The notes below the pieces were generated by a model, which saw nothing but the letters and a program-made list of their open reading frames with translations, made no database searches and had not been told where the DNA came from. A program made the translations under genes and the position numbers. Source: Bilabrum cf. latius (taxonomy: Eukaryota). Taken from it: a stretch of 64,000 bases of DNA. Of the stretch, positions 16,429 to 54,332 are shown in pieces. The stretch spans positions 124,001 through 188,000 of the forward strand of contig OZ237751.1 of the NCBI GenBank assembly GCA_965178125.1, written 5' to 3'. Every line of letters begins with the position of its first letter. Position 1 is the first letter of the stretch.

Positions 16429-16902
16429 TTATTTGTCCCTGTTGCAAATGCCACGCTGCGGCTCGCAGTCTACTTGCTCGGTTGCCTTGGGCGGTATTGC
16501 GCCTGCCTGGCTACGTCTGCGCCGCCTTGCCTTCTGCTTCCGAACTTTCGCTTGTCGCTTCAGCAACTTGGACTCTGCTCCCAGCTCCAACACTTCAATT
16601 TTCTCTTTGAGCAGCCTTCTAGCTGTTTTTCGATTCCCAGCGAGCGACCGATGCGCGTGCACCTACACCTACGTGCCCGTGGGTAGATGGGTGAGCTACA
16701 CAGCGTTAGAAGCCGTATTGACAGCTTGTCCACCTCTCCCGCTCCCGCGCACAAATTTCTCTTGCAAATCGGATTCTTGCAGCGTCGTCAATGCGGCGGA
16801 TGATTTGTATCGAACAGTCCTCAGCGTCCTTGGGTAAATGACAGTGGCAAGCAACGTGTAACGGGCTCTAGAAACTACTATGCTTGCTCTGGTATACTTC
16901 AT
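16429..16902 (-). CDS. RF-1 domain GGQ peptidyl-tRNA hydrolase, C12orf65/mtRF-R-like mitochondrial ribosome rescue factor
   Basis: DLQEKFVRGSGRGGQAVNTASNAV*LTHLPTGT*V*VHAHRSLAGNRKTARRLL followed by a basic C-terminal helix. Three in-frame TAGs; ends TAA at 16429. Confidence 0.85.
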
Positions 16903-18390
16903 ACAGCTGCTGGGAGCATACGCTCTGTGCAGAGGGGGGAGGATAGATCCATCACGTCGGTCGGTTCCGCCAAATCTTCATCTTCGTAGACTACTGCAGC
17001 TCAAGTCGTGAAGGCCCTAGCCTACGATAGGCCTGCAACATGGGAGAAGCCATTCAGGCAGTATGATCCTCCTTCAGTCCAGTAGTACTACTAGTAGGTC
17101 TGCATGCCCCGGGCCTCTTGTCCGCAGCGGGGATACGCCGGTCAGGGGGTCGCTGGGTGCGCACTCCACCGGTACATTTGTTCCGTGCCCACTATACAAC
17201 ATCCGAAGCGCTAGTGCACTCGTGGGCGGCCCGGAGATGCAACATGCGGCAAATGGGGGGCCCGCATCAGGGGTTGGATCGTCCGCCGCACTCGATGGGA
17301 CGAGAGGCAAGGATGCACAACCGAAAGAAAGCCTAGCAGCTCGGCCACAGCGGGACCAGCATTAGCCATGCATCTCTATAAGCTCCATTAAGAACGCCAG
17401 CTCGGCTTCAGCCGCCCGCATCGACCGACTGGCGGCTCTAACCAGCAGCTCTTCGCTTGTATTCAAGGCCCGCAGTGCGATCCAATGGAGCGACCCGCGA
17501 CGTTGTGCCTCATAACAGTGGCTACGATTAGTGGATATCACAAGTGTCTGGAGTGCAGTAGCGCTGGACTGTCGGCTGGTGCCTGCAGATTCGACCCCGC
17601 TGCCCGATCGCCGGCCGGCAAGGATTCGCAAGGCAATCAGAAGGCAAGCTACGGAGGCTGAAGCCCCGTCTCGTCGCACCCCGTACCTAAGTTCGGGATT
17701 GCAGCGACTACCCGCAGGGATGAATGCCTGTCCTGGCCCATCCTATGACATTCGTGGATGCTGCGACGTAAAGCTATCAACAGCCAAGCTATCAACAGCC
17801 GAAGACTAGCGCGCGAAGACGGTATTTCTGTCGCCAGACACTTAACACAATGACATTGAAGATTGGCGGCTCGTGTATGTCGGAGGATGTGACTTCTGGG
17901 GTGCGTGCAGCTTGCTTCCTTCGACATTGACCCTCAACATGCTACGTGCGGGATTGAACTATGTATCCAAGTTTGCACTCGATTTGTATGCACCACATTG
18001 TGGCTGCGGGGCCCCGGCGTTTCATGCGTCGGACTCAAGTGCCCTGAACCCGGCCGGGCTTGCCTGTGACCCGTGAGGGGGCCGGAAGAAAGAGGATTGC
18101 TTTCGTTCATGCGGACGTCTGTCTCGAGGAGTTCAGTCGCGCACGCGTTGCCCATCTGGAAAGAAGGGTGAACTGCGCAGTAGTATCCGGCGAAACGTGT
18201 CAGGGTGGCGACACAGCAGCACACGTCGGAGCTGCACTCGGTCAAGCAGATCGCGTCCAGCGTCGAGCGACTGCGGGACTCTTTTTTATTTGTGTCGGAG
18301 TCGGGCTGCGGTCGCATCACTTCTCTGCGCTTCGATCCAAGCACCTCGCCACCTTAAGCTGTAATCTATTCTTTACTTTTGCCTGGATGA

Positions 18391-19013
18391 ATGCGAACAG
18401 GTGGTAATCTGGCAGGGCGCAGAAGCGGGGAGGCCGGCACGCTTCTTGGAAACAGTCGCGCCCGCGATGGTAAGCTGTGGGATTATGCATTGTCGCTATG
18501 GCAGGCATGCAATCAACTCTGTTCCTTTTTATATCTGTGCCATGGCTCGCCGCAGATGGGACTTCCAGAGGTCTACCACTTGGAGGGGGCGATGGGCGGT
18601 ACGAAGACGATGAGGAGGCTTTCATCGATACTCACTTGAGGCAGCAACAAGTAAGCACGCGGCAGAGTGGAAGATATTGCAGGCACACATTTTTCACATG
18701 CGGGATTTGAATCGCTGGCTTGTTAGCATCGCAGGAGTTCAGAGACGTGCAAGACGAGCACTTGGACGAGCTGCACGCTTCGGCATCGCGTTTAGGCGCG
18801 ATAAGCGTATCAATCCGCGACGAGTTGCACCAACAGAACAAATTAATATCTGAAATAAATGAGGAAGTCGAACAAGCTCAGACTTCGCTGGAGCGAGCGA
18901 CGAATAGGACAAACGAGTTCATTCGCAGGCACGGTGGCTGGGGCTACTGCTGTGTTATATTCGCCCTGTGCGTGATTCTTCTGGTGCTTGTCTTGGTGCT
19001 TATCCTTGGCTAA
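18391..19013 (+). CDS. Qc-SNARE (syntaxin 6/8-like), tail-anchored
   Basis: Exons 18391-18469, 18556-18650 and 18735-19013 with GTAAG...GCAG introns. QDEHLDELHAS..RL..I..EL.QQNKLI SNARE motif plus C-terminal TM. Ends TAA. Additional upstream exons are possible. Confidence 0.75.
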
Positions 19014-19262
19014 GTTGGGGCTTATGCCAGCAGGGCATGAGCTAATGCATCGGTACCGTGGGTTTAGCCGCCTCAATGAGATTGGCACTTCCTGGCAGCG
19101 ACAAAGCACCACGCGAATTGAAAGAGTAGGGTTGCGACCAGTAGCGCGTGCACTATAGCACTTACGGGTGCTTATGGTACAGCACGACCTCGTGACTTGA
19201 GCCAAGTTTGACAACAACAACAACATATTTGTCTGCATGCCACGCCAGCCGGCCCCACTCTC

Positions 19263-22896: not shown

Positions 22897-23214
22897 GCGA
22901 AACTCGTCCTATTCCAGTTCTCTGCTGGTCCGCAGGATCTCTGTGGCTGCAGCTTCCCGCGTGGCCCGACCAGCTGCGCACAGGTAGGGCAACGGCTCGC
23001 TTGTTGCGATATCAAGCAAGCAGCGCAAATGTCAGAGGGCTGACAACCACTACCACTCACCAAAAAAACGATCAAGCGATTTTCGCGTCTGGGACCACTC
23101 CTGGCTCTGGTCCATTGTACAGAAAGAGTGGCTTCATTGCAAAACGGTTCGAATTCGACGTTCGGCTCCGGATGACCAGTACTGCAATTTAATTGAAACG
23201 CGTACTGTGCGCCG

Positions 23215-25671
23215 ATGAAAAGTTGGATACGGCGTCCATGGCAGGTTTTAGGTCGTTATAGATCGCGTAAACAGCATGCACTGATCGGTATGCAGCAATG
23301 TTGCAGATTGAAGCATTCCGACCAGGGAAACGATGCGGGTGGGGGTAACTTGGACACGTTTCGGGCAGCCAGGGCATCTGAGCGACAGCTGATTTCGCAG
23401 ATGTTTTCGTATCTTAAACGCACACCGGAAGTTCGTCAAGTAAGACGTGTTGTTGGAAAGAATTTTCGATCAAGTATGTGTCAGCTATCATCAGTAAGAT
23501 CCATGCATGAATCGAGGTTCCCACCGCAGTATCTAAAGTATTTTAGTAGTGTAGATGCTGATAGATTTGCCATTATTCGGGTGTCTGGGGATATCCTGCA
23601 CGAGCCGGAGCAGGCGAGGCAGGTCGCGAGCGCTCTCTCTTTCCTGCATCGCGTTGGGCTTGTGCCCGTCGTCGTGCACGGCGCTGGCATCTTCACGGGG
23701 CGGCACACGCCCGACGTAGCAAAAGCTCTGCAATCGCTAGCCGCAGCCAACGAGCAAGACGCAGCGGCCGGGTGGAACGAGGCCTCCACCAGCGGCGGCT
23801 CAGCCAGCGCCGCAGCTCGCGCGGCCGCCCTCGAGGCGGGAGGGCGATACCTGCGAGCCGCCAACGAGGCCCTGGTGGCGGAGCTGCAGCGGGCCGGGGT
23901 GCCCACCGCTGCGTTTCCCACGGGCGTGTTTGAGTGCGAGCCGGATGACGAGTACACGGGGCCCCTGCGCGGGCTCGTGGGCCGCATCCTGCACTCGGAC
24001 GGGACCGGGGACGAGGACGAGGACGAGGACGAGGACGGGGACGGAGAGGAGCACGAGGGCCCCAGGACGGGCGGGATCCAGGCGGCTCTCGCTGCCAAGA
24101 AGGTGCCTGTCGTGGCCGCGCTCGGGTGGGCGGAGTCCACCGGTGGATTGGACGATGGCGAGGATGGCGCGTCCTCGGTAGCCGGGGAGAGCACCGGGAG
24201 GGCTCCTCGCAAGCGTAGGCTGCTGACGTTTTCCACCGCAGAGGCGGTCGGCGTGCTCGCCCGCAGCCTCTAGCCCCTGAAAGTTGTGTTCCTCCGGCAG
24301 GAGGGAGGCCTCAGGAGGATGGACGGGAGGGAGGTGAGCAAGGTGGTGCTGGCCAGCGACCTGGAGGGGCTGCTCTCACCGGGGCAGCGGAGCAGAGTGG
24401 TGGAGGACCTGGAGGGGTGGAGGGGGAGGGAGTGGGAGGAAGAGGAGGGCTGGGGCGATGGTGGGGAGCGTGCAGTATCGTCGCCCTGGCTGTCGGATGG
24501 CGATGCCGAGTCGGTCCGTGAGGCTGCGGTGCTGCTGCGGCCCGACCTGCCGCCGGGTGCCGCGGGCCTGGAGCCGGGCACCACCGTGTCGATGACCTCT
24601 CCGCAGCACCTGGCCAGCGAGTTGTTTCTGTCCCAGGGGGCCGGCACACTCGTCACACGGGGGGAGCGGGTGCAGAAGCTGAGGTCGCTGCCTTGGGGGG
24701 AGGACGAGGACGGGCCGACATTGACCACGCGGACCGCCGAGAGCGAGAGCGAGAGCGGAGCAGCAGTTGGAGGAGGCAGGGGTCACCAGGAGCATGAGCA
24801 AGAGCAAGAGCAAGAGGCGGATGGTGAGGGTCATGATGACGAGGACAGTCCGAGGGTGCGGCTGCAGACTCTGCTGGAGCAGGCCTTCGGAGCCTCGCTG
24901 GACCCAGGCTACTGGGCCAGCATCCGGCCGAAGCTGCGGGCCATTTACGTGCTGGAGTCGTGGCGCGGGGCCGCGATCGTCACGGAGGAGGGCGGTTTCC
25001 CTTACCTGTGCAAGTTCGCGGTGGATCCCACGGCCTAGGGGGAGCAGCTGGGACAGGCCGTATGGAAGGCACTCGTCACAGGGGAGCCCCGGTTCTGCTG
25101 GCGCTCCCGCTCCTCCAACCCCGTGAACGGGTGGTACTTCGGGCAGGCGGATGGGTCCTACCTGGCCCATGTCGCCAAGGACGGGGCCGTGGGTCCCGCC
25201 CCCGCAGCTGCTGCTGCCAGCGTGTCTGGCAGCGGCGGAGGGGCCCAGGGTGCAGCAAGCGGGACTGGTGGCAGTGGGTCTAGCAGTGGCAGCGGTAGCA
25301 CCAGCAGTGGCGGAAACAACGGCAGCCATGCCTCAGAGGGGGCGGGCCGTCGCAACGCAGGCCCATCGGAAAGTGTAGGTCGGCTGAGCATCGACAGACC
25401 GGGCGTCTCGTCCCCACCCGCCATCACCAGACAGGACGGGCAGGAGAGTGCAGCGCACGGTGGTACCGGGACGGGTGGCCAGGGTAGGCAGGTGCCGGGG
25501 GGTTCGGCTGTTCCTGGCGGCAGAACCAGTCCAAGGGCCGGCCGGAGCGCAGCCACGACGGGTGCGTGGACCGTGTTCTGGAGGGGGCTAGGGGACGAGG
25601 AGATCCTCCCGGCGGTGCAGGTGGTGCTGCAGCTGCCTCCCTCCTTCGACAGGCGGGCCAAGGGGCTTTGA
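23215..25671 (+). CDS. NAGS: N-acetylglutamate synthase (degenerate amino-acid-kinase domain plus DUF619/GNAT domain), probably mitochondrial
   Basis: EVRQ|YLKYFSSV..FAIIRVSG with a 90-nt intron at 23440-23529, VVVHGAG, ARSL*PLKVVFL, ELFLSQGAGTLV, YLCKFAVDPTA*GEQLGQAVW, WRSRSSNPVNGWYFGQADG, WTVFWRG. TAGs at 24271 and 25036; ends TGA. Start uncertain. Confidence 0.8.
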
Positions 25672-26080
25672 GGGGGTTGCGGTGCAGGTGGTGCTGCAGC
25701 TGCCTCCCTCCTTCGACAGGCGGGCCAAGGGGCTTTGAGGGGGTTGCGGTGCAGGTGGTGCTGCAGCTGCCTCCCTCCTTCGACAGGCGGGCCAAGGGGC
25801 TTTGAGGGGGTTGCGGTGCAGGTGGTGCTGCAGCTGCCTCCCTCCTTCGACAGGCGGGCCAAGGGGCTTTGAGGGGGTTGCGGTGCAGGTGGTGCTGCAG
25901 CTGCCTCCCTCCTTCGACAGGCGGGCCAAGGGGCTGTGAGGGGGTTGCGGTGCAGGTGGTGCTGCAGCTGCCTCCCTCCTTCGACAGGCGGGCCAAGGGG
26001 CTGTGAGGGGGTTGCGGTGCAGGTGGTGCTGCAGCTGCCTCCCTCCTTCGACAGGCGGGCCAAGGGGCTTTGAGGGGGTT
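25612..26080. repeat. Seven direct tandem copies of a 67-bp unit containing the last 19 NAGS codons and its TGA stop
   Basis: Unit gcggtgcaggtggtgctgcagctgcctccctccttcgacaggcgggccaaggggct(t/g)tgagggggtt at 25612, 25679, 25746, 25813, 25880, 25947 and 26014. No spacers. Confidence 0.95.
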
Positions 26081-26255
26081 GCGGTCGGTGTCATGGCTTG
26101 GGTGGGTTTTTGGTATGCGGCGATGGGATGCACCTGCTGGCGATAGCCCCGTGTGCTTCCCTGCCAGCGAGATGGCGAACCGGTTGCTACTAGAACTAGT
26201 AGTTCTGAAACGTCGCAGCGGCTTGTACGTATCGAGCAAATCAGCATGATCGCGC

Positions 26256-39100: not shown

Positions 39101-42100
39101 AGACAGCACGCCCACCACGCCGCCTGCGGTACTCGAGCCGAGCAGGCCGGCTCGCTTGCAGCTTTAGCCTAGGATGGCTCTAGTGCCGCAGTAGCAGCCG
39201 TTGCCCTGGCATCACGCTCAGCATAGGCATGTACCTGCCCGGTGTGGCGCAAACAAAGACCCCTTTCCCGAAGCAACCTCTTCGCCCCTCGTCGCATATC
39301 CTCTGTGCTACATGGCTCGTGCTCGCCGGCCATGGCCGCAGCAAGAGCCGCGCCTGCCTCTCGCAGCCTATCCGGGGACTGCAGAGCACCAGTGGTCCGT
39401 CGCAAGTCATCCTTCATGCTGCCATCGGGGTCTTTTCCCTGCATGAAGACGCAATCGGGGCTGACCTTGGGCAAGTCTAGCCCACGAGCCACCCGGGCTG
39501 CCTCTGGGGGCATCATGCAGGTGAGCAGGCACTTGCTACCGAAGTACCACCGCGGGCACGACACTACAGCTATCAGTCTACGACCGTCTTTCAGTTGGGA
39601 CTGCAGCAGCACACAACCAGTGCCCATATGCCGCGACACAGAAACGAGCGAATCGCCGTCCGACAAGGCCCCTCCTTCAACGCACACCTTCAGCACGGCG
39701 GCTTCCAGGTTCTATCCGAATTGCTCGTGTCTCGCGAGCGGCTTCCCAGCGACTACGAGCTCACGCGCGCTCGACCCGGTCTTGAGATCTGCCAAGACTC
39801 GAACGGCCCAGACCCTTGGGAGGCCTTCGATGGCTTTTCTGTGGCACATGCGCTCGATCCAGTGCAGGTCCGGCATGAGCAGTCTGTGCGTGTCCACCAC
39901 CACCCTCTCCCCACTTGGCAGCTGGTGCACTTCCACGTCGAATGGGAGTGGATGAAGCACGGGCTCGTCAAAGGGATGCTGCTAGACTTGGTGCGTATCA
40001 CGCGGGTCCCCTACCGTGGACTCAAGGCACGCCCCACATTCAGCAATCACTTCCTCGACGTCGTTCTCGTCATCAGCGCGGTGCTTGCTCAGCCTACCCT
40101 TCTCCTGGTCGACCGGCTCCGCCCGATCCACCGTTGTCAACTCCATAAAATCAATGGATCCGCGTGCACCGGTTCTGATTGCACCGCCGGCAAGAGCATG
40201 CCCTGCCAGTGCACTGGATCCATCCAGACCATGCTGTCGCACCGTGTCGCCAGGATACGAATGCCGCATCAGGAAGGATGGACCGCGCGCGTGCCACTTG
40301 AGCCGAATGGGGGCGATGTGGAAGTGCTCGGCGATGGGCAGCAGCACGTCATCCTTCTGCTCTTCGTCCACATGCAGGGTCTGCGCGCCGTCGGGTGACC
40401 CTACTCTAGAGTCTGCTGGCTCAATGGCAGCTTCGACTGCACTAGCACCCGCTGCACCTGATGCAAGCCTGCAGGTTGCCTGTCCGCGTATGGCACGTCT
40501 ACGACCGTTGTCAGCACGGCGCTGGCATGCAACGAATCCATCACATGAACCCACCGGGACGCCTTCGCCTCCAGCTTCATGACCTTGGCCGCCATGACCT
40601 CGCTGCCGTACAAGCCCTTAGGATCAGGAGTTTTTAGGAAGAGGCCTTGACCTTCGTGGATCAGCTTGGCGCCACCTGCCACGCCTCCTGCGTTTACCCT
40701 GACGAGACCTTTCGCTTCCCCATCTCTGTCGCCCTGACCTTGGGCCAGCTGCATCACGACAGGCACGCGGCGACCGATCGATCTCGCGGCCACCACAAAG
40801 TCCCTTCCGACCTTTGCAATTGCCTCCCGTCGCTCTCTCTCGTCGTGGATGGTCAACGCTACCTGCCGCTTCGCTCGGTTGAAAGCGGACTGCGGGTTGC
40901 CGCTGTCCTCGTCGTTCTCCTCGACGGCTACAGACGGAGGCGCTGGTGATTTGCTGGAAGCATGGAGGCCCCGAGCCCCACCTATTGGTGAGGAATCGAT
41001 CGGGCTGCCTTGTTTCACTGCTTCGACAGCGGCGCTCCCGGCCTTCTGCACCCCTCCCGCGAGGGCGATCGTTCCCGTCTCTGCACCAAATCTCCCTCCC
41101 AAGCAGCTCAGTAACTCGCGTAGCAAGGTGCTAGGGACCGTCACGTTCCATGGCTGATTTCAGGTACTCTTGCAACCCCTCGACTTCCAGAACGGCTCGC
41201 TTCGCATCCTCACTACCTTGTACACACGTTGCCAAGGCCTACAGCAGCAGTGTATCTGTTGAGGCACCCTCGAAGTAACGCGATTCGCCGGGACTTTTGA
41301 TCGCCGCTTGGTGCGCAGCCATTCCGTCCTTCTGCGGCGCTTCTGTTCCTACCGCTGGTGCCGTCTCACCGCCTGTCATTGGCTCAAGACGGCTAGTACC
41401 AGCGGCAGCACCAGCAGCGACAACACCAGTCCGACCCTCAGCAACACTGCCTCTGCCAGTGGAGGCAGCAAGAGCACGCGCAGCTGCTACAGCCAGCCCC
41501 GGTCTGGATATTGGAACGCTTTCACCTTCAGCACCCGCTTCCATAGGACGGGTACTGTCAGTCTTCTCACTGGCAGTTGAACTGCTTTCGCCGGCGGCCT
41601 GCGAAGCGCCGGCCACGAAGAGCGACCACACAATCGCGCATACCGCCCGCGCACCGGCTACACCAAAGGTCGAACGCGGCCCACAGCTACGGAGTAGATC
41701 TACTGCAGCGTCCATGATTTGCAACATAGTCTTCTCTCGAGCTTCACTGCTGTCGGCACTGGCTGCCAGTGTAGCCTCTCCTGTTCCAGCACGCGGCGGG
41801 GCTGGCTCATAGCCCCGGGATTCGACAGTGTCCTTGCTGTCGCTACCAGTATTCCATGCTATTTCATCTAGTACTGGCGTGTAGTAGGTGCTCACTCGGG
41901 CCCTCGAGTCTTCTGCTGATGCTACAGCGGGATGCACGATCAAGATTGTGGAGCATAGGTCAAGCGCAGCCGCTTTGTGAGAGGCAGGAACTCCAGGGCT
42001 CCCAAGAACCCTCACAGCATGTGTAAGGATACTCTTTGTGTGCTAGCAAGCCCCAGCACTTGTCTGGGAATGGCAGTAGAAGGCAGTCATAGATTCCAGC

Positions 42101-42303
42101 TGGGAGACCGACAGCAAAGCTCCGTCTAAATCTGCCGCGAGGCGGGCGCATACCGAGCCAGCTGCAGCGTAAGATTGCCTATAAACGTCTACTAGGGGCT
42201 CTACTTCATTCGTGTCATCCACAGCTGGTAGCAGCGCGGAGCATTCGCGGTCAAGCACCACCAGAGGTCCTTTTTCTGAGCACTGTTGCAGCTTGGTGGG
42301 CAT
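36151..42303 (-). CDS. CLU-domain plus kinesin-light-chain-type TPR protein with a Gly/Ser/Glu repeat tail; two frame discontinuities
   Basis: [39 protein letters not shown] and [14 protein letters not shown] are CLU-like. About 11 42-aa TPRs (LG.EHP...L.N.A.C...MG...EAL). Nine or more in-frame TAGs. Frame changes near 41090 and 40401. Ends TGA. Confidence 0.65.
36198..36989. repeat. Coding minisatellite, 33 x 24 bp, encoding GEGAS(G/A)SG
   Basis: Unit ccccaccgctg(g/c)cactggcaccct in two variants differing at one base. Confidence 0.95.
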
Positions 42304-42492
42304 CCAAAGGGAGTACGCATTCGCTTTCTATCGTGAATGATGGCATGATGTGAATCGTGACTCGCTGCTGTTTGCGTACTGCCTTTGGATCCGGTTGTAC
42401 TGTGCTATCCGGAAGTAGCACGGAAAGTGGACCGTGACCGCTTGGGTCCTATTCAAAAGGTCAAGTGCCGCGTTGTGTATCTTTACGATTCC

Positions 42493-45400
42493 TCATCTCA
42501 TGTGTCCTTCAAACCCTCGCCTCGTGTCACCTCGCAGCTCCCCCGCGTCCCTGCGACGGGCCTGCGGCGAGACGCTCTCCACTGCCATGCCCTCCTCACC
42601 TAAGCCACCCCGTCTATCCCCACCGCCCCTTGCACCCGAGGCACTGCGAGCGCCAGACCCCCCAGCCGGACCGGCACCGGCAGGACCGAAACCACTGCCG
42701 CCCGCCACCCGCCCCGCCCCTCCAACCCTGCTGCTCTCGTCCCCCGCCCAGGCCTCCCGCTGCCCATCGTGACCCCGCGTCCGAGCTGAGGCCTAGCCGG
42801 AGCCCAGGAGCAGCTGCCCCCCCTTGGACCGAATCCCAGTGCTGCTGGCGATGAGCCCGCCCTTGCCCTTGCCCTGCACCCTCCCACCACCCTGACCCCG
42901 ACCCTATCCGTCGCTCCCGACACCCTCTATCTTCCCGTCGCTGCCCCGCTCCGCCAGCACCTTGAACCCGTCCTCCTCGTCCTGCAGAAGCAGCTCCTCC
43001 GCCGCTTTGCCCACCTTGTCCGAACCGCCCGCTGACGGATCCCCCGCCGCCCCCCGCGTGTCCTCCAGCACGCGAGCGAACCTCCCCAGATCCGCACCCG
43101 CCGACATGCTCGCCTCGAAGATACGCCGGCACGCCCTGCGGAACTGCTGCACCTCCCTGTCGATGTCCGACGCGAGGGCACCCACACTCGTCATGCCCTG
43201 CGCCGACCCAGCGCCCCGCCCCGCAGCCAGCCCCCGCAGCGCCTCGCAGTCCGTGGCCACCTGCTGCCCCATCTCGTCGGACAGGCGCAGCAGCTGCCTC
43301 CCCAGCCAGAGCACGCCCCTCTGGTGCGCCAGCAGCCTGGCCCGCCTCGCCGCCTGCGCGTCCACCGAGGTCTCTTTGCTCTCGCTGGCCTCGTGCTCCG
43401 CCAGCGAGGCACGCTCCTCGGCGTCCTGCAGCTTGCGGGACAGCTCGTCCACCGCCGCCATGGCAGCCTCCATGAGCGCGGCGTGTTCCCTGGCCGCGCT
43501 CCAGCTGGGAGGTTTCCCCGCCCCGCCTGAGGCAGCCGCCGGGAAGTTCCTCGTCCACTGGGGCGCCCATCCGTATCCCGGATTGCCCCCCGGCAGCCCC
43601 TCCTGCGCCCCCAAAGGGAGGTGCGTCTCACGGTCCGGCGACTCGTCCACGCTGCGGCGCCGCCCTGCGGAACCGGGGCGGCTCCCACTGAAATGCACCA
43701 GGGCCCCGCCGCCGCTGCCCCCGCGACGGCCAGAGGAAACCGCCCTTCCCCTGTCCACGGATCCCGACCGACCCCTGGGGGAATCCCCGTGCTGCTGTCC
43801 CCACCCGGGGGGCGGGGCCAGGGAGTCCACCAGCCCCGATTTGAGCAGCCCCTCGGCACCCGCCCCCCGGCCGCTCCTGCCCCTCCCCGCGCTCCTGGCC
43901 CTGCCCGTCCGACTGCCCTCTCGACCGGCCTGCAGGCCGTACGCTGCCTCCAGCAACGCCTTCCTCCTCCGGTCTGCGGCACCCTTGCCCTGTGCCTGCC
44001 CCTTGCCCCCCGCCCGCAGCCTCGCGTGCAGCCGAGAAATCACCGAGGCCTGCAGCACCTCCCTGTACGGGGTCTGGTGCTTGACCCTCCTCCTTAGCCT
44101 GTCCAGCTCGTCCCTGACCCCGGCCCTGACCTTCTTGATCTCCTTCTGGCTCCGCTTGTGCCACACCTTGTTCAGTCCCTGCAGCAGCCCCTGCACCTCC
44201 TCCGCGGGCACGCGCATGAGGTGCCTCTTGCGGAAGGACACCATCTGCCGCAGGGCCTCCGATGGCACCCACAGCGAGGCCTCCTCCCTCCCCCCCCGCG
44301 CGGGGAGGTCCCCCTCCCGCAGCTCCTCCCGGTACTCTTGCTGCATGCCCTCCAGGGCTGCGAACCCACCACCTCCCTCCCCTTCGTCGTCCTCGTCCTC
44401 GTCCTTGTCCCCGCGGCGCATGGGCCCGCCGCCCAGGTATTGGTCGGCCGCAGCACCCCCGGCCCTCGGCACCTAGCCCAGGTAGCTGGACCGAAGCTTG
44501 CCGCCGGAACTCCCCCCTGCAGCAGCCGCAGCCGCATGCAGCCCGAACTTGGACATCGCGAACTGGCGGTACTCGTTCGTGCTCGCGAGCAGCCGCACCA
44601 GCCTGGCGTTGTCCCTCTTCAGGTGGGCCACCTGGGCGCGGTACATACCCTCCTGGGCCGCCACGGCGCCCAGCTGGTTGGACCGATGTTCCGCTTCCTC
44701 TGCGCGGCGCCCCGCCGCCTCGGCCGCCCCCGCGGCCTCCACGAGCCCCTGCTCCAGCCTCCTCACCTGCTCCACCGCGTCTTCCCTCTCCTCCCGCAGC
44801 CGCGCCACCTCCACCTGCGCCTCTGCCAGCCGGTGCCCCTGCCCAGCGGTGGCCTCGCGCTCGCTCTCCCGCGCCTCTTGCACGCCCGCCAGCTGCTCCT
44901 GCAGCTCCTGTACCTTGGCCTCCAGCTCCTCCACGTCGTGCGCCAGCCGCTTGGAGACCGCGGACCTCTCTTCCACCACCCTGTAGCTCTCGTCCAGCCG
45001 CGTGATGGCCTCTCGGTGCTGGGCCCTCAGCTTGCCGTTGTGCTGCCGAGACTCCTCCAGCTGCAGCTCCAGGAATCGCACGCGATCCTGCAGCTGCAGC
45101 TGGTCCGCCACTCGGCTGCCCCTCGCAGACGAGGCGGTGAGCGCCAGCGCCGCGGCCTCCTCGGCCTCTCCCTCTCGCCGCGAGCGATCCTCCGCGGCGT
45201 CGCGCAGGATGCGGGCCTTGAGGCGGATCACCTCGCGCTTGGAACCTTTCAGCTCCGACTTGGCTCGTCTCCACATGGACCCCAGCCGGGCGATCTCGTC
45301 CGCGTCCAGCGAATCGCGCATGCCGCTGAGATTCACGTAGCCCTCGTCGTCGCTATCGTCGTCTCGCTTGCCGTGGGTAGCGGAGCCTCGGGAGCGGCTG

Positions 45401-45525
45401 CTGCCTCGCTACGGGGACGGCTTTCCAGAACTACGACCTGCGGGAGATTCTCCCCGGGATCGACCAGCGTACTAGCCAAAGACCTCGTTGAGCGTGTTCA
45501 TCACGTCGCCGCCTTTGCCCTCCAT
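42493..45525 (-). CDS. Uncharacterised long coiled-coil protein, possibly basal body/centrosomal
   Basis: Single frame from ATG 45525 with 5 in-frame TAGs (including 44473 and 42904) to TGA 42493. Heptad-rich, with LKRDNARLVRLLAST and WVP..LNKVW..PYREVLQ blocks. Confidence 0.65.
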
Positions 45526-45777
45526 ACTCTCGCGGCGGGCCCTTCGGCCGCGGGATCCTGACATCGGAAGGCGCGCTTTTTATTTGATTGGCACAAAACT
45601 TGCGCCTGCCGCTCGAGCAGCGCCGAATTTGAACCGCAGCAGATGGGTCGGGTCTCGCGCGAGCCCTTGCGACCGCCGGTGCACCCCAACGGCAACTTCT
45701 CGGCAGTTGCGACCGCCGCTCGGTTCGGCTGATGAAAACACGAAGGCCAGTGCTTCGTTTCGACGCGCAGCACAGGC

Positions 45778-46695
45778 ATGCCACTCACATAGAGCGAAAT
45801 TGATGGGTGAGGGATTTGGCTCCGCTGCGAAGGGCGCGAGCGATGCATGTGTCCGAGGCAGCAGAGATTCGCGGTGCAACGGACCTCAGGCCAGGTTTCT
45901 ACCATCGAGCCTTTGATCTCTCATTATGCCCTTTTCTTCACGCAACGCAGGTGCAGGGAAGCATTTAGGTAAGCCGCACCGGACTGGCGTCGGGCAGCAC
46001 GAGTGCGACGGCTGGAAGCACTTTGATTTTTGAGAGACGTCCGCTGTGTGATCTTCGCTCGCAGGGTTTTCGATGCCGACGGGTCGGGCAGCATTGATGC
46101 AATGGAACTAAATGCCGTATTGGAGGCTCTTGGTCAGCGGGTGACCAGCGAGGAGCTCTTCTCCATGATTCACAGCGTGGAGCCTGGGTGCACCACCATT
46201 TCGTTTCCTGCTTTCCTCCGAATTATCGAGAAGCAGAAAGAGAGAGCTAGCAGGGTAGATGACTAGGCAGATTGTAAGCTCAAAGCGCCGTCGTGACCTA
46301 TTTTGCGCTCGGCGAGTGACCGCTTCGGTCGGTGGTGCGATTGTGGCCGGTGGTACAGCTTGCATCACACAAGCCGTTGCTTTTTACTCTGGCGCGATTC
46401 GATTTATTTCGCAGTATTGGATGCTTTCGTTGCTGTTGGGGGCAAGCCGGACGGCAGCGGCAGCGTGAAGCGAGAGGTGCTGGAGGACGTGATCAAGAAC
46501 CAGTTCGGGCTGAGCATCAACATCGGGGCGCTCATCGACCTCGTCGACGTGGACGGGTCTGGCGAGATCGAATTTTCGGAGTTCGTGGGACTGCTGACCG
46601 CCAAGCGAACAGTGCCGCCGGGCCCGCCGGACGGGGAGGAGGACGAGGACGGCGGGGGCGACGGAGCGGCTGCTGCCGGCGGTGCCGGCTCATGA
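45778..46695 (+). CDS. Calmodulin-like axonemal outer-arm dynein light chain (LC4-type, 18 kDa)
   Basis: Exons 45778-45806, 45951-45968, 46065-46273 and 46415-46695 give MPLT*SEIDGCREAFRVFDADGSGSIDAMEL..LGQ..EELFSMI..DD*ADLLDAFVAVGG..DVDGSGEIEFSEF. Ends TGA. Confidence 0.8.
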
Positions 46696-46837
46696 TTTGA
46701 ATAATGACCACCACAACTTTGATTGGTACGGCACTTGGATACAACTGCAGCTCGCACTCCTTCTTTCGAATGGCATAAATGATTCATGATTCATCCGTAC
46801 CTGTAGCAAGGCACGCCTGCTCCTTCCCAGCCATCGC

Positions 46838-48640
46838 TCACCGCGCCTTGGATTTCTTGCTCCGGGCGGCAGGGAACACGAGAGGAGTCTTCAGGACGAG
46901 ACACTTGGTCTTGACCCCGGCCTTCTCCCCCTGGGCCTCCCTGGCCCCCATCTGCGCGAACCTGGCCCGCATCACAGAGGCGGTGAATCCAAGTGCATCG
47001 GCGATGGACGGCAGCACGCCAACGGGGATGGCGAACTGGTACAGGTACAGCCAGCCCACCAGCAGGTGTGCATCGAGCCGGGCCTGGGCCTCCCTGTTCC
47101 TCTCCCAGCACACCTTAAACCTGCTCGACTTGTCCGAGTTCTTGCGCGTGAACTTGCGGAGCATGGCTGCCCCCGCGGCTTTGGGCAGCAGCCGCAGCTG
47201 CTTGATGGCCCTGGGGTCCCCTGCATCTGTGACGGGGTCTTCTCCTTCTTCATCCTTCTTCTCTTCGGCCTTGGGCTTGCCGCTGTCTGAGGAGGCGGCA
47301 GCAGAGGAGGAGGCGCTGCTGGCAGCGGATGATGAGGAGGAGGAAGACGAGGAGGAGGAAGAAGCCGGCGCTACCTCTGACTCTTGTTCCTTCGCCTCTG
47401 GCTTGGCACCACCCTCCTCTCCCTCTCCCTCTCCCTCCTGCTCCTGCTGCTGGGGGCGCTGCACTCGGCCCACCAGCATGCTGCCAGCCGATCGTATCCT
47501 CAGCGCCACGTCCAGGAACGCTAGCATCTTCGACTGCTCCCGCCTCGTCTTGCGGTCCGGGTTCAGGCCCGCGAGCTCCTGCAGGTAGTCGCGCACGTAC
47601 TTGTGCATGCCCACCGCGTGAGCCAGTGCGGCCACTCCCCGCTCCTCGGGTGCCCCCGCACCGCCGGCCGCGCCCCCGCTGGCCGCCTGTTTCCCCTCGG
47701 CCTGCAGCGCCTTGCCCAACCTGCCCGCGTACTCCCCCAGCGCCGCCTGCTCCTCGGCGGACAAGAGACCCTCTAAGGGGTATGCCTCCGCCGGGGTCTC
47801 CGCCTCCTGGTTGAACTTGGGGAACACGCGCCTGCGGAGCCCCATGGCTTGGTCCTCCTCCACGGACAGCACCTTGGTGGGGTCCCTCCCCTGCTTGGCT
47901 GCGCGGCGCCTCGCCTGCTCCAGCGGGTCGGAGGTCTTCGAGTCGTGCTTCACCTGGCTGAGCACGGCGCTGGCGCCCGCCACCTGAGTGTGGTCCACTC
48001 GACTGGCGGCCTTGGACCGGAGCTACTTCTGGTTCTTGGCGCTCCCGAAGGCCTCCGTCAGCAGCCGGTTCCGCTCCAGCTGCGCGGCGACGGTGGCGCT
48101 CCGGCCCTCGGCCTGCATGGCGGCGGCTGCCACCTGCGCGTCAACGCTCTGCTGGCCCGCGCGGTCGATGCGACCCTTTACGGACTGCTTGAGCGTAACA
48201 AGGTGGGGCGTGGGGTGCACCGTGACGGTCCGTGTCTTGGGGTCCACAACTGCAACTGCGTAGGTGCACCTCGACCTGCGCTCCCCGATACCCATCTGCG
48301 CGTCGCCACGATAGACTAACACCTAGTTCTCGGCATGGAGCTTTACAACCCTACGCTTCTTGCTGCCTCTAGCGCTTACCTTCGCCCGGGTTGCACCCAT
48401 GCCCATCGTCTTCCCGAGCACCTCCTCCGAATCGCTCTCGCTGTCGCTCGCGTCACTTCCTCCGTCGCTACCATCTTCCATCTCTTTTCTGCCTCTGCGC
48501 CTGCCAATTCTACTGTTGCCAGCTTCCAAACTGGCCATGGGGGGCATACCCTGGGGGAAAGTTGCGATCACTGGGGGCTCCTGTTCATCTTCGGCCGTGA
48601 CAACCTTAACTCGGAACGTTTTCCCGAACTGCTCGTTCAT
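46838..48640 (-). CDS. RPA49: RNA polymerase I subunit RPA49/PAF53
   Basis: PPVIATFPQG, YAVAVVDPKTRTV, LTEAFGSAKNQK*, FPKFNQEAETPAEAYPLEGLL and LVLKTPLVFP..KK. TAGs at 48323 and 48023; ends TGA. Confidence 0.8.
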
Positions 48641-48855
48641 GCCGAAGGTTATGAATCCAAACTATCTGCTGATAACAAATGCAAGCCGCCCAACTGCAGA
48701 AACAATCCAATATGGCCAACTTCTGAATGTGCCTTGAAAATGATTATTCCGTCGACCGAATCTGCACGCTACCCAAGTATCGCTTGCCGCTGCGTCACTA
48801 CACCAAGAGCGGCCTGTGAGTCACAGAAAAAGTTACACCATATCACAATAGAGCA

Positions 48856-51800
48856 TCAACTCTGGCCTGCCGTATATCGGCTCACGGCAGGCGTCAAATC
48901 CGATTCACCGCTGAGCCGAGCGCTGGACGAGCCCCCCACCTGGATCGCCTCCCCCGCCACCTGGCGCGCCTCGGCTGGGCCCATGAGCCGGCCCGTGATT
49001 CGGCCTGGGCGACCACCTTGGAAATGACGCCCCAGCTGCTTCCTAGGACCTCGCCTGGCTGTCTTACCCCTGAGTGCACGAGCTGAGCCGCTGGATATGC
49101 TAGCGTGACTAGGCCCGGCCCTGGCCCTGCCCACGAAAAGCTGCCCCTCTTGTCCCGAAACTGCATCCTTGTGTTCCCTGGCCGCATCGGGGCCGAAGAG
49201 ATGAGACGTACTCGGAGTGAAACCGCTTGGAGCCCGCGGTTCGCCGGTGCTGGCGCGTTGTTCCCCGGAGACATGATGCCGCTGTCCGGTGGGGTCACGA
49301 TGTCGCCCCCTGGCACCGGCACTAGCACCGGCACCGGTACTGGCGTGCAGTGAGGCATGGGGCGCGACGGACAGGTCAAGCCCAGAGGCTAGTACAGCCG
49401 ATGGCACGTCTCCCCGCTCCCTGCGACCAGTGCGCCCTTTGTATCCGTCGCGGTGCAGCCCACTCCTCGGGGGCAGGAACCGACCTCTTGCGCCACTTTT
49501 GTTTGCTTCCTTCGCGCGACCACTCGCGCCGCCGGCACGTCTCGCAGACCTGCGCCCGGTTGCATCGCCCGCGCCCGCGCGAGAGCCTGCCATGCCAATC
49601 CCCATCACCAGGCCGCCCGAGCGCGAGGCTGCTCTGGATGATCCGGCGCCCGGCTGTGGGCCACTTGTTTGTTCCCTAGGGGGTTGATGTTCCCTGGTAG
49701 AGCGGTGAGTCTCATTAACACCTCGGGGCACAGTAAGGGGAGATGCACGAATGCGGCTAGTGCGAGCGTCCCTTGGCTGGTCCCTGTCGCTTGCCCTCGA
49801 GCCAGAGCGAGAGTCCCGGGGCTTTTCTCTGGCTTCGTCTCGGCCAGCTGATCCCGCAGAGGAGGGATCCACGGGCAGCATCATGGAGCCAATCTGTAGG
49901 TCGAGCGAGGGCCCAGCAGGTTCACTCGGCAGCCCATCGACCGCCCTTGCAAGGCCAAGGCGAGACGGTGCCTCGCGCCGCGCGGAGTACGAACGCGACG
50001 TGCGCTGCTCCCCTCCAGGCCTGCGCTTTGCTATGCCAACCCCTACGCTGCTGCTGCCAGCTCTTGTCGTGCCATCTGCCCCGCCATTCACAAGCAGCAG
50101 CGAATCCATCGATTCGATTTCCTCTCCCTATCCGGTCGAGACGCCTGGCCGGGAAGACAGCTTGCCGCCGCTGGTAGAACTCTCGCTCGGTGGTCTGGCC
50201 TGACGGGGAGGAGGCTCCAGCCCAGGGAACAGGAGCAAGCCGTCCGCTCCTGTCTACAACTTGCTGGCCGCGCACCCATCTCCCCCGGGACACTTGTTGT
50301 TCCTCCGAGCGAGCCACTCCTCCAAGCAGTCGTCGTGCACCCGGCATCCACACGGAAGGTGCCGGCCGGGAGCCGCGCCACCCACGGGGCCAGAGCAGTC
50401 GCAGCATTTGCTCCCGCTGCTGCCCGGGGCCTCGTGGGTGCCGAAGGAGGAGCTCCCCACAGAGGGCAGGGAGCCCACCAAGTACCGGATCAGCGCGGGG
50501 GACGACGCACTCGTCACACCTAGATCCGGCCCGGATCTGCCCAGTCCCCGCCTCGCCGCCGCCGCCCGCTGCCTCTCCAGCTCCCTGGCTCGCTGCCAGC
50601 GGTCCAGGGACATCAGGAGGTCGTAGTCGGCCGGGGTGATCTCTCGGTCCTCCAGTCCGGCGAGTGCCTCCTGCATCGCGGCAGCATCGTGCAGTGCACC
50701 TGCTGGCGGACTGGCGGACGAGGAGGAACCCCTCGCAGCGGGGGTGGTGGGGTCCGAGCTTGCCCCCCTGCTGGGGGCGGGGTGCCACCCGTGCCAGGAG
50801 ACCAGCTCGCTCACCGACATGGGCATGGGCATCGGTGCAGACGCGGAGGAGGCCGGCGATTTCGAAGATGAAGATGGCCAGGTGCGCGCCGGTGTTTCCC
50901 TGCACACGAAGCAGTGCTTGCATGCCTGCCTGTACGCGCCTCTTGCGGCCTAAGGCTGCTTGTCGGGTGCACATGCCTGACCGGAGTGGTCGTGATTTTG
51001 ACCCGGCTGGGCTGCAGCTGACTGGCCACTTCCATGGACCATTCCCACGCTTAGGATACCCTATCGCTGCCTTGTCTGATGTATCGCACTCCTCACGCTC
51101 CCACTGAGAGCCCGATCTCCCAGTCGCAAAAGGGCACCAGGGCAAGGACCGCCCGATCCATGGCGCGGCTCCACTCGGCGGCTTCGTGCCTCATTTTCCT
51201 GCCTATTCCTGGTCTCTGCTATCTTCTTCTTCTTCATCCTGCGCCTAGGCATGCGCCCCCCTTCGTGCTCTCCTCTAAAGTAACACCGGGAGCACAGGTC
51301 CATCGCACTGCAGTGCACGCACCGTAGCCGCAGCCCAACCAGCGGGCTGGTCCCGCAGAAGGCGCACCTCACACCCCGGTGCTGCCGCCTGCCGCTGCCA
51401 CCGCTTCCTGCATGGCCGCGTCGGCTGGATCGCTCCTGCCGCCGCAGGGCAGACGCCACGGACCGCGGGTCTCCTCCCCCGGTGGACGGGAGAGACCCCC
51501 GAGCACTTGCTCCGCTCCAGCCCGTGCTCGCCTTGTCACCCGAAGCGGCCGCCGCCCCCACTTCCCATTGCGCGCGGCAGAGAGGACACGTGACGTCGGC
51601 GTGCTCCGCCGCCCGATGCTCCGCCCACACTCGCATGCAGTGCGTGTGCAGGTTCTGACCGCAGCTCGAGGCGCACCACACGAGCTGCTCGTCAGGCGTC
51701 ATTGGGTCCTGACAGATGGGACAGGTCTCCCCCGGCTGGAGCGGCTATCGCTCTATCCCAGACGCGGGAGGTTTGGTCCCATCGCGCGCGCCTGGGCCTG

Positions 51801-52290
51801 GGCCGGCGCCGCTGCTGCCAGTGCCGTCCTCGTGGCGGAAATTCCGACGCTGCCGCAGGGCGCGCTGCCTACCAAACCGAGCTTCTGCCCGTTCCCTGCC
51901 CTCGAGAATGGCTTCCACTTCAGCATCCGTAAGCGATAGCTGGTACAGTAGCGGGCTGTCCGCGGATACGTGCAGCAAGCGATGCATTGCGAAGACCAGG
52001 TGTTTGCACAGCTACGACGCCGGCCTGTCCCCGAAGCAGCTAGAGCAGAGAAGCTCCCGCCCAATAAATACTCTGATTCGCTTTGAGCGTAGCTTCTACC
52101 CGTCCAGAGGCCCAGCGTCGCTTGAAGCCTCAGTTGGTGTGCCGGGCGGCTGCTCCTATTCAACCAAAATGAAACCCGTCGAGCCAAGGTCCTGGACACG
52201 GAACAGGCTGCGATTCTGCGCGAGCGTGTCCAAAATCTTGGGCAAGTCTGGGGGTGGGCGGGAAATCCATGGGGTAGATCGGACAGCCAT
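48856..52290 (-). CDS. ZSWIM2-like E3 ubiquitin ligase (SWIM, RING, ZZ, RING) with a long disordered C-terminus
   Basis: CSSC..LCKHLVFAM (SWIM), CPICQD..CGQNLH..CM.VW..CPLCR, HRGVRC..PLVGLRLRC..DLCSRC (ZZ), REITPADYDLLMSLD, LPCGCRVHDDC. About 8 in-frame TAGs; ends TGA. Confidence 0.75.
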
Positions 52291-52415
52291 CCTGCTAGGC
52301 CTGGCTGTCCTGTGTGCAGGCAACGGCAACTGCCCGTAAGTGGGTTTTGGTGTGACGACAAGACTAGGTCGGACAGCAAAATGCAAGGTCGTGTTGTCCT
52401 TCAATCGGCATAGTC

Positions 52416-54332
52416 TTATCTTCGCGTGGTTAGAGCGCGCCTCTGCCTGGTCCATCCCCACAAGGACGCACCCAAAGCAGCACAATGCAGCAGCAAGCCC
52501 CCGAGCATCACGTATCGGCCCACCTGCCTCGCAGTTGCAGCACCACCAACCCCTTGCACCTTCACCACGCCCGCTGCTTCCGCACGACCAGCCGCCTCCT
52601 CCCTCTCCCCCCCTCTCACATCCCCGGGCCCCACCACCACCCCCCTCCCCTCTCTCTCAACCTCCCTCGCCCACCGCAGCCTACCCTCGATCTTCGCCCT
52701 CGACTCCTCGTCAAAGGCCTCATCCGCGCCCTTCTCCAGAAGCTCCCTCGCGCACCCGTCCGTCAGCAGCACCCAGTTGTGCCTCGAGGGTCCCTCCTCC
52801 GGCCTCCACCGCGCCAGCAGCAGGCCCCCCTTCTTGGACCCCATCCGGAGCCCAGTCACCGCGCACCGGCCCCTCCACACGTGCGTCAGCAGGTACTCCA
52901 CCACGGTCGGGCTCACGTCGTCCTCCAGTTCCGGTTTCTCGACCCCGTGCTCCCGTTTTTCCCTGTGGGTCAGCCGGTGGAACGTCTTGGTGACCAGGCT
53001 CTTTGAGGGCCGGGGCAGCGTCAGGGGGCTCTTGATGGGCTTGCCCGCCAGCTCGCACAGCGCGTGCGTGGCCAGCGCCATTCCCATCAGAGCGGGAAGG
53101 GTGCCCAGGACCGGCATGACTCGGAGCCGCATGCCTCCCACGGCTCCGAACTCCGTGGGGTTCTCGGCCTGGGCTTTGGTGAGAGGCAGCAGCTTCACCG
53201 CGGGCTCCTCGCTCGTGTAGACCACTTGGGTGCTGGCCAGCAACTGCGCGTACCTCTTCGCCCCCTCCTCGCTGAGCTCGTCCTGCAAGGGAAGCCAGAA
53301 CATGCCGTGCTGCTCGTCCCCGCCGCCCTTGTCCTTGCCCTTGCCCTTGCCCTCGCCCTTGTCCTTGCCCTTCATCGCCGCCCTCCTGGCCTCCTCCTCG
53401 GGGAAGGGCGGCTCTCCTGCAGCCAGCCTCCTCTGCACCCTGCTCCTCTCCTGCTAGGGCAAAGAGGCGAAGTACTCCTCCTTGCGCATGTCTAATCGAA
53501 GCCTGTACCTCAGCTGGATGGCGAGCGAGTCCACGATGGTGCTGTCCAGCGTGCTCAGGTGCATCCTGGTGAAGTCGCACTTGCCCCCCGCCCCCAGGGC
53601 ACACACCACGGGCAGCCCCAGTCGGTCGCAGGCCATCACCAGCTGGGCCTTGGTGGGAGTATCGTCGATGCAGTCCAGGACCAGGTCGGGCTTGCCCCAG
53701 TCCAGGGAGGAGGCAGGGGCAGAGGAGGAGGAAGCTGCACCACCTGGGCCGGGGGCGGTCGAGTCGCCCAGCGATGCAGGCGGCTGCGCCGGACCCACTA
53801 GCAGCTCGTCGGCGGAGGTACCCCGGAACATCTGCGTCACCGCATCCACCTGCACGAACGGGGCAATCTCGTGGAAATGCGCCTGGCAGGCCTCCACCTT
53901 GGGGATGCCTACGTCGCGGCGGGTCGCGACAGCATGCCTGTTCAGGCTGGACAGGGTCACGTTGTCGAAATCGATGAGCCTGAGCTTGCTGACTCCAGAA
54001 CGAGCGAGCATGTGGGCTGCGTGTGACCCAACCCCCCCAAGGCCGACAACAACCACGTACGAGCCCTCCAGCTTCTGCTGGGGCTTGTCGCCAAAGAACT
54101 GGCGTATGCGGGACAGCTACTCGTCCCGAAGCTGGGGCGAATCTTCTAGAGCCTGGCCTGATACTGCATCCATGCCCGACGCAATGCTTCCAGCCGTCGA
54201 GGGGCCATGCTGCTTTTGTTTGCATGGGGCACCAGAGTTGGTTGCACCGGCGAACTCCTCAATGGCCAAACCTGCGAGAAATGCGAGGCTGCCCCCCGCA
54301 GAGCAAATTGCAGCTACCTTGAGAGGTTCCAT
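52416..54332 (-). CDS. tRNA threonylcarbamoyladenosine dehydratase (TcdA/TCD1-2, ThiF family)
   Basis: N-terminal TM, LRDE*LSRIRQFFG, VVVGLGGVGSHAAHMLARSGV, IDFDNVTLSSLNRHA, DCIDD, LGAGGK, VVYTSE, RVMPVLGTLPALMG. TAGs at 54117 and 53454; ends TAA. Confidence 0.9.

Follow-up and report, generated by a model that had tools for sequence, protein, structure and literature searches.

Probable reading of UAG as glutamine, with UAA kept as a terminator, in a GC-rich genome near Cafeteria

When UAA and UAG change meaning, they nearly always do so jointly. Passages of PMC11687900 list many ciliates, ulvophytes, Hexamita, Streblomastix and Amoeboaphelidium with such a coupled code, in which both codons stand for glutamine (UAR=Gln, table 6). 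Codes in which only UAG became glutamine and UAA stayed a stop are described in passages of PMC5304391 for the fornicate Iotanema spirale and in passages of PMC11687900 for Protocruzia tuzeti and two phyllopharyngean ciliate lineages; the latter passages match the precedents named in a preliminary description of this DNA (Iotanema, phyllopharyngean ciliates). Other split codes include UAG=Leu in the rhizarian exLh (PMC5304391), UAG=Ser in Scotinosphaera and a ciliate code with UAA=Lys and UAG=Glu (PMC10553269, PMC11687900). These few split cases (Iotanema, the rhizarian, Scotinosphaera and some ciliates) are the main natural material on how eRF1 tells UAA and UAG apart.

Here we describe a 64-kb window, the whole stretch of DNA analysed, which likely comes from the compact, GC-rich nuclear genome of a stramenopile near the bicosoecid Cafeteria; this organism would read UAG as glutamine and terminate at UAA and UGA. 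We take this code to be NCBI table 15. As in the UAG-only codes of Iotanema and the ciliates, UAG is glutamine, UAA and UGA terminate and UAA was not seen in frame, but the lineage is a stramenopile near Cafeteria, not a metamonad or ciliate. The window has ~65% GC and UGA as its main stop (17/20), whereas Iotanema and the rhizarian kept UAA as the dominant stop, according to passages of PMC5304391. The coupled UAR=Gln codes share UAG=Gln with the window, but there UAA is a frequent sense codon; here it occurs in 0 of 17,495 in-frame codons (a zero partly by construction, see the control below) and ends three genes. Unlike in exLh, Scotinosphaera and the ciliate with UAA=Lys and UAG=Glu, the conserved columns point to Gln, not to Leu, Ser or Glu. 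The coordinates are collected in Table 1.

Table 1 Features of the window that bear on the reading of UAG and UAA.
Feature	Position	Strand	Remark
RING-finger gene, three exons, 1486 codons, 6 in-frame TAG	3..4807	+	ends TGA 4805-4807
RING-finger gene introns	about 2710-2862, 3046-3236	+	spliced RNA contig
Intronic TAA, RING-finger gene	2847-2849	+	RNA contigs
Cadherin-like surface protein exon, 2649 codons, 10 TAG, 0 TAA	5560..13509	-	ends TGA 5560-5562
RF-1-domain (GGQ) protein gene, 157 codons	16429..16902	-	Pfam PF00472, E 8.2e-21
TAA end, RF-1-domain gene	16429-16431	-	TAG directly after
TAG codon 69, RF-1-domain protein	16696..16698	-	Gln-consensus column, alignment
Bet1-like SNARE gene, 125 codons	18466..19013	+	Pfam SNARE PF05739, model positions 2-53 of 53
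SNARE introns, two, GT..AG	about 18470-18555, 18651-18734	+	RNA contig joints
SNARE TAA end	19011-19013	+	immediately behind TM helix
N-acetylglutamate synthase/kinase (NAGS) gene	23215-25671	+	ends TGA
TAG codon 353, NAGS	24271..24273	+	aligned to Q of solved homolog 3s7y
RNA polymerase I A49 gene	46838-48640	-	ends TGA
TAG codon 206, A49	48023..48025	-	aligned to Q in P0126
TCD (tRNA threonylcarbamoyladenosine dehydratase, ThiF family) gene, 638 codons	52416..54332	-	Pfam ThiF, E 3.9e-38
TCD TAA end	52416-52418	-	11 residues past C-terminal TM helix
TAG codon 72, TCD	54117..54119	-	conserved 'EQLSR' column
EF-hand-containing ORF, 3128 codons, 14 TAG, 0 TAA	54615..63998	+	runs off window

In-frame TAG codons lie at positions 72 and 293 of TCD and at 69, 78 and 80 of the RF-1-domain protein. 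Gln dominates the four conserved columns that hold a TAG (TCD-72, RF1-69, A49-206 and NAGS-353), with every other residue present in at most 2/14 or 2/22 homologs. Q stands in 11 of 14 aligned homologs at TCD codon 72 and in 15 of 22 at RF-1-domain codon 69; for A49-206 it is 1/1, the homolog search having returned a single match (P0126, a 65%-identical A49 relative with its C-terminal end at the same residue). Three other aligned TAG columns are variable or not Gln: Q appears in 3/22 and 4/22 homologs at RF-1-domain codons 78 and 80, and NAGS codon 608 is aligned to R. Two paralogous PAE genes were uninformative: both TAG lie at variable positions, where the second copy has T and K. A homolog search for relatives' fragments with residues 40-1500 of the cadherin-like protein, which cover nine TAG positions, gave no match. 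This gene has a further upstream exon past an intron at 13510-14166, and a TAG at 5614-5616, 17 codons ahead of its TGA, could act as a stop.

Sequencing runs also bear on the TAG codons. We compared a DNA run (X1) and three runs (X5, X7, X8) that we took as RNA-like from their spliced contigs, not from run records. Wherever one of the four covers a TAG codon it agrees with the window, without listed T-to-C differences. One spliced RNA contig (X5 record 8) covers the RING-finger TAG at 2274, 3620, 3914 and 4154 without differing letters. RNA editing of TAG was therefore rejected, and pseudogenes are likewise ruled out, because TAG is unchanged in spliced RNA-derived contigs from three runs. 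Loose contig ends were sought in the window and 0 of 10 were found; they were treated as assembly chimeras. The basic claim of the preliminary description, that TAG is a sense codon, is borne out by the Gln columns in TCD, the RF-1-domain protein, A49 and NAGS.

Among the 20 gene 3′ ends in the window, 17 are TGA, three are TAA and none is TAG. Each TAA is the first non-TAG stop in its frame (RF-1-domain gene, SNARE and TCD), and all three were found at exactly the positions given earlier (16429, 19011 and 52416). The accompanying claims that the remaining genes end in TGA and that no gene needs a TAG terminator agree with these counts and with the five C-termini well anchored by homology (A49, NAGS, methyltransferase, TCD and SNARE), all of which are TGA or TAA. 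The TAA of TCD and SNARE sit at predicted C-termini supported by homology; in the alignment, the closest TCD homologs end 2-8 residues past the same TM helix. The spliced SNARE CDS is in frame without an internal stop, and its exon joints are present in three runs and missing from the DNA run. We also considered the ORF at 3-2849 as a fourth TAA-ended gene and rejected it: its TAA is intronic, and it is spliced to the RING-finger ORF ending at TGA 4805.

Alternatively, UAG could be ambiguous, encoding glutamine internally and terminating near 3′ ends, as in Condylostoma and Blastocrithidia, which we consider unlikely. The sample comprises 20 gene ends, and the late TAG of the cadherin-like gene would fit, as would an RNA contig edge 21 nt past the TGA of this gene, contig edges being weak evidence. 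However, 0/5 of the well-anchored C-termini are at TAG, and in-frame TAG is near neutral and barely depleted, like an ordinary sense codon, with 73 observed against 93.5 expected from the off-frame rate. The TAA placed directly before a TAG in the RF-1-domain gene also speaks against ambiguity, and alone excludes nothing.

UAG=Gln with UAA retained as a terminator also predicts where TAA should occur. The in-frame stop triplets in the 17,495 codons of the counted set (20 CDS segments from 18 gene models of the 64-kb window) are TAG 73, TAA 0 and TGA 0, the zero for TAA being partly by construction since the segments were cut at TAA or TGA. Read in the +1 and +2 frames, these segments contain 187 TAG, 52 TAA and 469 TGA among 34,988 triplets, a rate from which 26.0 in-frame TAA are expected. 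The CAA:CAG ratio (99:587) predicts 12.3 (P(0) = 4.5e-6), and the lowest NNA:NNG ratio among 13 codon pairs (CTA:CTG, 0.092) still 6.7 (P(0) = 1.2e-3). TAA is just as missing from reading frames as TGA. As a control we used ORFs ended by TGA only. These 17 ORFs contain 81 TAG and 10 TAA, and none of the latter is inside coding sequence: seven precede the first ATG, one is intronic (2847) and two are the ends of the RF-1-domain gene and TCD. The two largest (2710 and 3150 codons) have 24 TAG and 0 TAA. The tally of in-frame TAA versus TAG proposed earlier was thus run for this window only, and together with the control it upholds the statement that conserved coding blocks lack in-frame TAA. A local codon-usage score over 30 codons either side of each TAA and TAG was too noisy to locate coding ends.

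These counts weigh against the coupled, ciliate-type code (table 6), with UAA and UAG both Gln, UGA as sole terminator and TAA rare through GC richness, which we regard as very improbable. TAA is the rarest stop triplet on both strands of the window (251, versus 716 TAG and 1180 TGA), and reading with TGA as the only stop would change SNARE and TCD little. But zero TAA stand against 6.7 to 26 expected, while every other A-ending codon is in use, including the rarest sense codon TTA (18), ATA (42) and CAA (99), and the sole three candidate sense TAA all lie at or beside predicted protein ends. The coupled code would also need a fusion: the frame beyond the RF-1-domain TAA runs on into a glycosyltransferase ORF, and read-through would join the two in frame, although most of the 150 RF-1-domain homologs listed have the domain near the C-terminus. 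The two genes differ in codon usage (GC3 0.58 vs 0.75). An X5 contig (14111-17885) spans the spacer between them and is neutral on separate messages.

That the in-frame TAG are not glutamine codons at all, reflecting assembly errors, pseudogenes, RNA editing to CAG or another amino acid, deserves almost no credence: the columns RF1-78, RF1-80 and NAGS-608 would permit it, but the agreement of the DNA and RNA-like runs, the presence of TAG alone among the stop triplets in these frames and the dominance of Gln in the four conserved columns all contradict it.

Returning to a split code with UAA as terminator, the TAA ends, a sample of three genes in 64 kb, show one peculiarity. The next in-frame TGA follows 9 codons behind the TAA in SNARE and 5 codons behind in TCD, so that read-through would barely alter these two proteins and TAA termination is strictly needed only by the RF-1-domain gene. 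A second stop within 9 codons was found at 2/3 TAA ends versus 1/14 TGA-ended genes (one-sided Fisher p ~0.06). UAA termination may thus be weakened and backed up, in which case the code would be an intermediate toward full UAR reassignment.

The lineage was placed with a TCD tree of 24 rows, in which the window is sister to seven rows including Cafeteria roenbergensis with support 98/98; this placement is that of a single gene with a long branch (1.36). The window TCD shares with the Cafeteria-containing clade both an insert and a TM tail at the C-terminus, and it is 41% identical to P0003, the Cafeteria cluster representative. The earlier guess of a stramenopile therefore stands on best matches and this one-gene tree. 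Searching metagenome contigs for TCD yielded one distant locus among 402 pattern matches (L001, 33% identity), with no match from the organism itself or from a close relative. Cafeteria roenbergensis, the closest named relative by TCD, is GC-rich like the window (~70%) with few introns, and passages of its genome paper mention a non-standard code for the mitochondrion only (10.1101/751586). Its TCD was predicted at full length by ordinary gene calling, unlike the TAG-bearing TCD of the window.

By analogy with passages of Panek et al. 2017 (PMC5304391), UAG would be decoded by a tRNA-Gln with anticodon CUA. This tRNA could have arisen from tRNA-Gln(CUG) via a single anticodon change and would not pair with UAA. 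The eRF1 would in turn have lost or weakened UAG recognition while still reading UAA and UGA. ARAGORN found no tRNA genes in the window, Rfam returned an SRP RNA only, and the 64-kb window contains no eRF1 gene. The 'RF-1' gene encodes a small protein with a GGQ domain, of the ICT1/MTRFR type, rather than a release factor that reads codons, and is uninformative on nuclear stop recognition.

We judge the case to be a new lineage for an already known code variant. On balance, we slightly favor the view that it is the first nuclear stop reassignment in a stramenopile, an independent UAG=Gln origin that left UAA as a stop, in a clade next to Cafeteria that comprises two or more related species, and in a GC-rich genome with UGA as main stop. 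Our literature search found no stramenopile with a UAG/UAA split, as the preliminary description had likewise known of none; further taxa may be tabulated in PMC5304391 and PMC11687900. A stramenopile case would extend the independent origins to a new supergroup branch and to a GC-rich genome in which UGA dominates termination. It would also test whether such reassignments are driven by mutational bias, by mutation of a tRNA anticodon or by a change in eRF1; codon capture, in which AT pressure removes UAG, would be no explanation in a GC-rich genome with mainly UGA stops.

The UAG change appears to extend to at least one close relative, because P0129, its predicted RF-1-domain protein (76-85% identical), stops exactly ahead of TAG-69. 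Gene calling with the standard code breaks most long genes here, and fragments in databases, P0129 among them, stop at a TAG; the public proteome is therefore likely fragmented.

The DNA of the window is eukaryotic and nuclear. Its G+C content is 60–74% in 4-kb windows over the 64 kb, the genes are tightly packed and mostly intron-free or intron-poor, and GT..AG introns are spliced out in contigs of three RNA-like sequencing runs and retained in the DNA run. Long open reading frames (ORFs) emerge once TAG is read through. Ten of the 16 ORFs tested had a Pfam match at E ≤ 0.001 (ThiF, NAT/AA_kinase, RNA_pol_I_A49, RF-1, Glyco_trans_1_4, TPR, EF-hand, RING/ZZ, RING and, weakly, cadherin); no Pfam family was found for the other six, one of them an antisense control ORF. 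Matches were also obtained for six of nine further ORF pieces (SNARE, three pectinacetylesterase (PAE) pieces, Methyltransf_7 and, weakly, Dynactin_p22).

Coordinates of the features discussed, in window positions
Feature	Position	Strand	Remarks
Cadherin-like gene, large exon	5560-13509	-	
Intron of cadherin-like gene	13510-14166	-	657 nt, GT..AG, joins large exon to upstream exon
Spacer, RF-1-domain TAA to first ATG of next gene	16369-16428		60 nt only, same frame
RF-1-domain gene	16429-16902	-	small GGQ-domain protein
SRP RNA gene	18060-18269	+	Rfam Protozoa_SRP, 73.4 bits, full-length model
Bet1-like SNARE gene	18466-19013	+	
In-frame TGA behind SNARE TAA	19038-19040	+	
N-acetylglutamate synthase/kinase (NAGS) gene	23215-25671	+	
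PAE-family gene	32919-34228	+	
PAE-family gene	34445-35763	-	
TPR protein, C-terminal end	36151-37100	-	
RNA polymerase I A49 gene	46838-48640	-	
In-frame TGA behind TCD TAA	52401-52403	-	
tRNA threonylcarbamoyladenosine dehydratase (TCD) gene	52416-54332	-	ThiF family

In 20 coding segments, representing 18 gene models with exons joined by RNA evidence where present, we counted 73 TAG, 0 TAA and 0 TGA among 17,495 in-frame codons. Read in frames +1 and +2, these segments yield 34,988 triplets with 187 TAG, 52 TAA and 469 TGA, corresponding to 93.5, 26.0 and 234.5 expected in frame. Judged by these off-frame rates, the frequency of TAG in frame is close to neutral, while TAA and TGA are missing altogether. 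Of the Gln-type codons, 9.6% are TAG. The in-frame TAG codons are genuine and carried in mRNA: a spliced contig of the RNA-like run X5 (record 8) includes TAG at 2274, 3620, 3914 and 4154 with no letter differing, and over 20 kb only two differences between run contigs and window are listed, both in the RNA-like run X7 and unrelated to TAG.

Alignment with homologs indicates that UAG is almost certainly read as glutamine. TCD codon 72 falls into an 'EQLSR' column where 11 of 14 homologs have Q, two L and one V, and RF-1-domain codon 69 corresponds to Q in 15 of 22. A49 codon 206 lies opposite Q of P0126, its sole search match, and NAGS codon 353 opposite Q of 3s7y, a solved bifunctional enzyme. 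Several other TAG codons are neutral or speak against glutamine, namely RF-1-domain codons 78 and 80 in variable columns (Q in 3/22 and 4/22), NAGS codon 608 opposite R, TCD codon 293 within an insert, and two codons in a PAE gene opposite T and K of its paralog.

The preliminary description had reported finding no in-frame TAA in conserved coding blocks, and the count above agrees. Because the first ORF set had been cut at TAA, the count was repeated on 17 ORFs bounded by TGA alone, which contained 81 TAG and 10 TAA. Of these TAA, seven precede the first ATG, one falls in an RNA-proven intron, and two are the ends of the RF-1-domain and TCD genes. In the two longest of these ORFs, with 2710 and 3150 codons, TAG occurs 24 times and TAA never. 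If TAA encoded Gln at the CAA:CAG ratio (99:587), 12.3 TAA would be expected beside the 73 TAG, with a probability of 4.5e-6 of finding none. The lowest NNA:NNG ratio of 13 codon pairs (0.092) gives 6.7 expected TAA and a probability of 1.2e-3. TTA, the rarest sense codon, occurs 18 times among the 17,495 codons.

UAA is very likely still a terminator. The TAA ends previously assigned to the RF-1-domain, SNARE and TCD genes were recovered at the same positions, each as the first non-TAG stop of its frame. All remaining gene ends are TGA (17) and none is TAG, again as described, with three of the 17 being ORF-level predictions of weak or no family support; the TAA ends are a sample of three in 64 kb. 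The TCD TAA lies 11 residues past a C-terminal transmembrane (TM) helix, and the closest homologs (P0001–P0006) end 2–8 residues past the same helix; this end is outside the stretch compared with run contigs and rests on homology. For the Bet1-like SNARE gene (125 codons), exons are fixed by RNA joints, the SNARE domain and TM helix extend to the last residues, and TAA directly follows the helix, as had been noted. The RF-1-domain protein, with 157 residues, has a typical family size and a tail that varies among homologs. Its TAA is followed by TAG, and the same frame runs 20 codons to the ATG of the glycosyltransferase ORF, so that TAA as a sense codon would fuse the two, which differ in codon usage (GC3 0.58 vs 0.75). 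No splice joint is listed at this end, which an X5 contig (14111–17885) crosses unspliced. That contig is unbroken across both genes; their messages may overlap, or the genes may be co-transcribed. A fourth candidate TAA-ended gene, ORF 3–2849, was rejected since RNA contigs place its TAA in an intron, and ORF-based ends can thus mislead. Neither a tRNA gene nor an eRF1 gene was found within the 64-kb window.

In-frame TGA follows 9 codons after the SNARE TAA and 5 codons after the TCD TAA. A second stop within 9 codons occurs in 2/3 TAA-ended vs 1/14 TGA-ended genes (one-sided Fisher p about 0.06). These close TGA could be due to chance or could be back-up stops, which PMC6879139 reports for ciliates with reassigned stops. 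A third reading would make TGA the actual stop of both genes and TAA a sense codon; it is far less likely than either of the others, as it needs three rare sense TAA at or beside protein ends by chance. TAG may, with low probability, have a double use and also serve as a stop near 3′ ends; one TAG lies 17 codons ahead of the TGA in the cadherin-like gene.

The earlier guess of a stramenopile lineage gains support from TCD. Its best named matches are stramenopiles, Cafeteria roenbergensis proteins belong to the cluster of the close match P0003, and a maximum-likelihood tree of 24 rows places the window sister to a 7-row clade including Cafeteria (support 98/98), in a single-gene placement with the window on a long branch. 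The GC content of Cafeteria is about 70% according to 10.1101/751586. Two database proteins stem from a relative much closer to the window organism: P0126 (A49; 65% identical, same C-terminus) and P0129 (RF-1-domain; 76–85% identical), which ends at residue 68, just ahead of TAG-69 of the window. This relative probably shares the code. Runs X5–X8, filed under four different organism codes, contain 26–99% of the window's sampled words; the organism may coexist with other cultured protists or algae.

According to PMC11687900 and PMC5304391, the meanings of UAA and UAG are nearly always shared. UAG-only Gln is given there for Iotanema spirale, Protocruzia tuzeti and two phyllopharyngean lineages, UAG=Leu for a rhizarian and UAG=Ser for Scotinosphaera; a tRNA with anticodon CUA is the expected decoder, and in eRF1 attention should go to the motifs of the N-domain. 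The window code is of the same kind as those of Iotanema, Protocruzia and the phyllopharyngeans, but differs in lineage, in its GC-rich genome and in UGA as the main stop. No report of a nuclear stop-codon reassignment in stramenopiles was found in the main texts of the literature searched, which includes few subscription journals. The code is a known type of variant, probably in a new lineage, and UAG as Gln, UAA as terminator and a stramenopile host are likely to hold jointly. Within this one window, the observation in the preliminary description is confirmed and its interpretation supported. The code is of clear interest for genetic-code evolution and matters for annotating this organism.

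Further features concern the gene arrangement. The SRP RNA gene lies ~200 nt upstream of the SNARE gene, and seven minus-strand genes follow each other at 36151–54332 with spacers of roughly 0–1.3 kb. The ATG-defined start of the minus-strand RING/ZZ ORF (52455) overlaps the TCD end (52416); the ORF therefore probably begins at a later position downstream of this ATG. At its C-terminal end, the TPR protein has ~45 tandem nine-residue units (GEGASGSGG / GEGASASGG), a stretch open in all six frames. The last ~16 codons of NAGS (…VVLQLPPSFDRRAKGL) reappear within repeated units downstream of its TGA (25600–26100). The PAE genes are convergent (tail-to-tail), near-identical paralogs, each with an intron after the first exon and with second exons identical over large stretches. 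The upstream exon of the cadherin-like gene lies just downstream of the glycosyltransferase TGA, and the ATG at 13626 is intronic, given the intron joining this exon to the large one.
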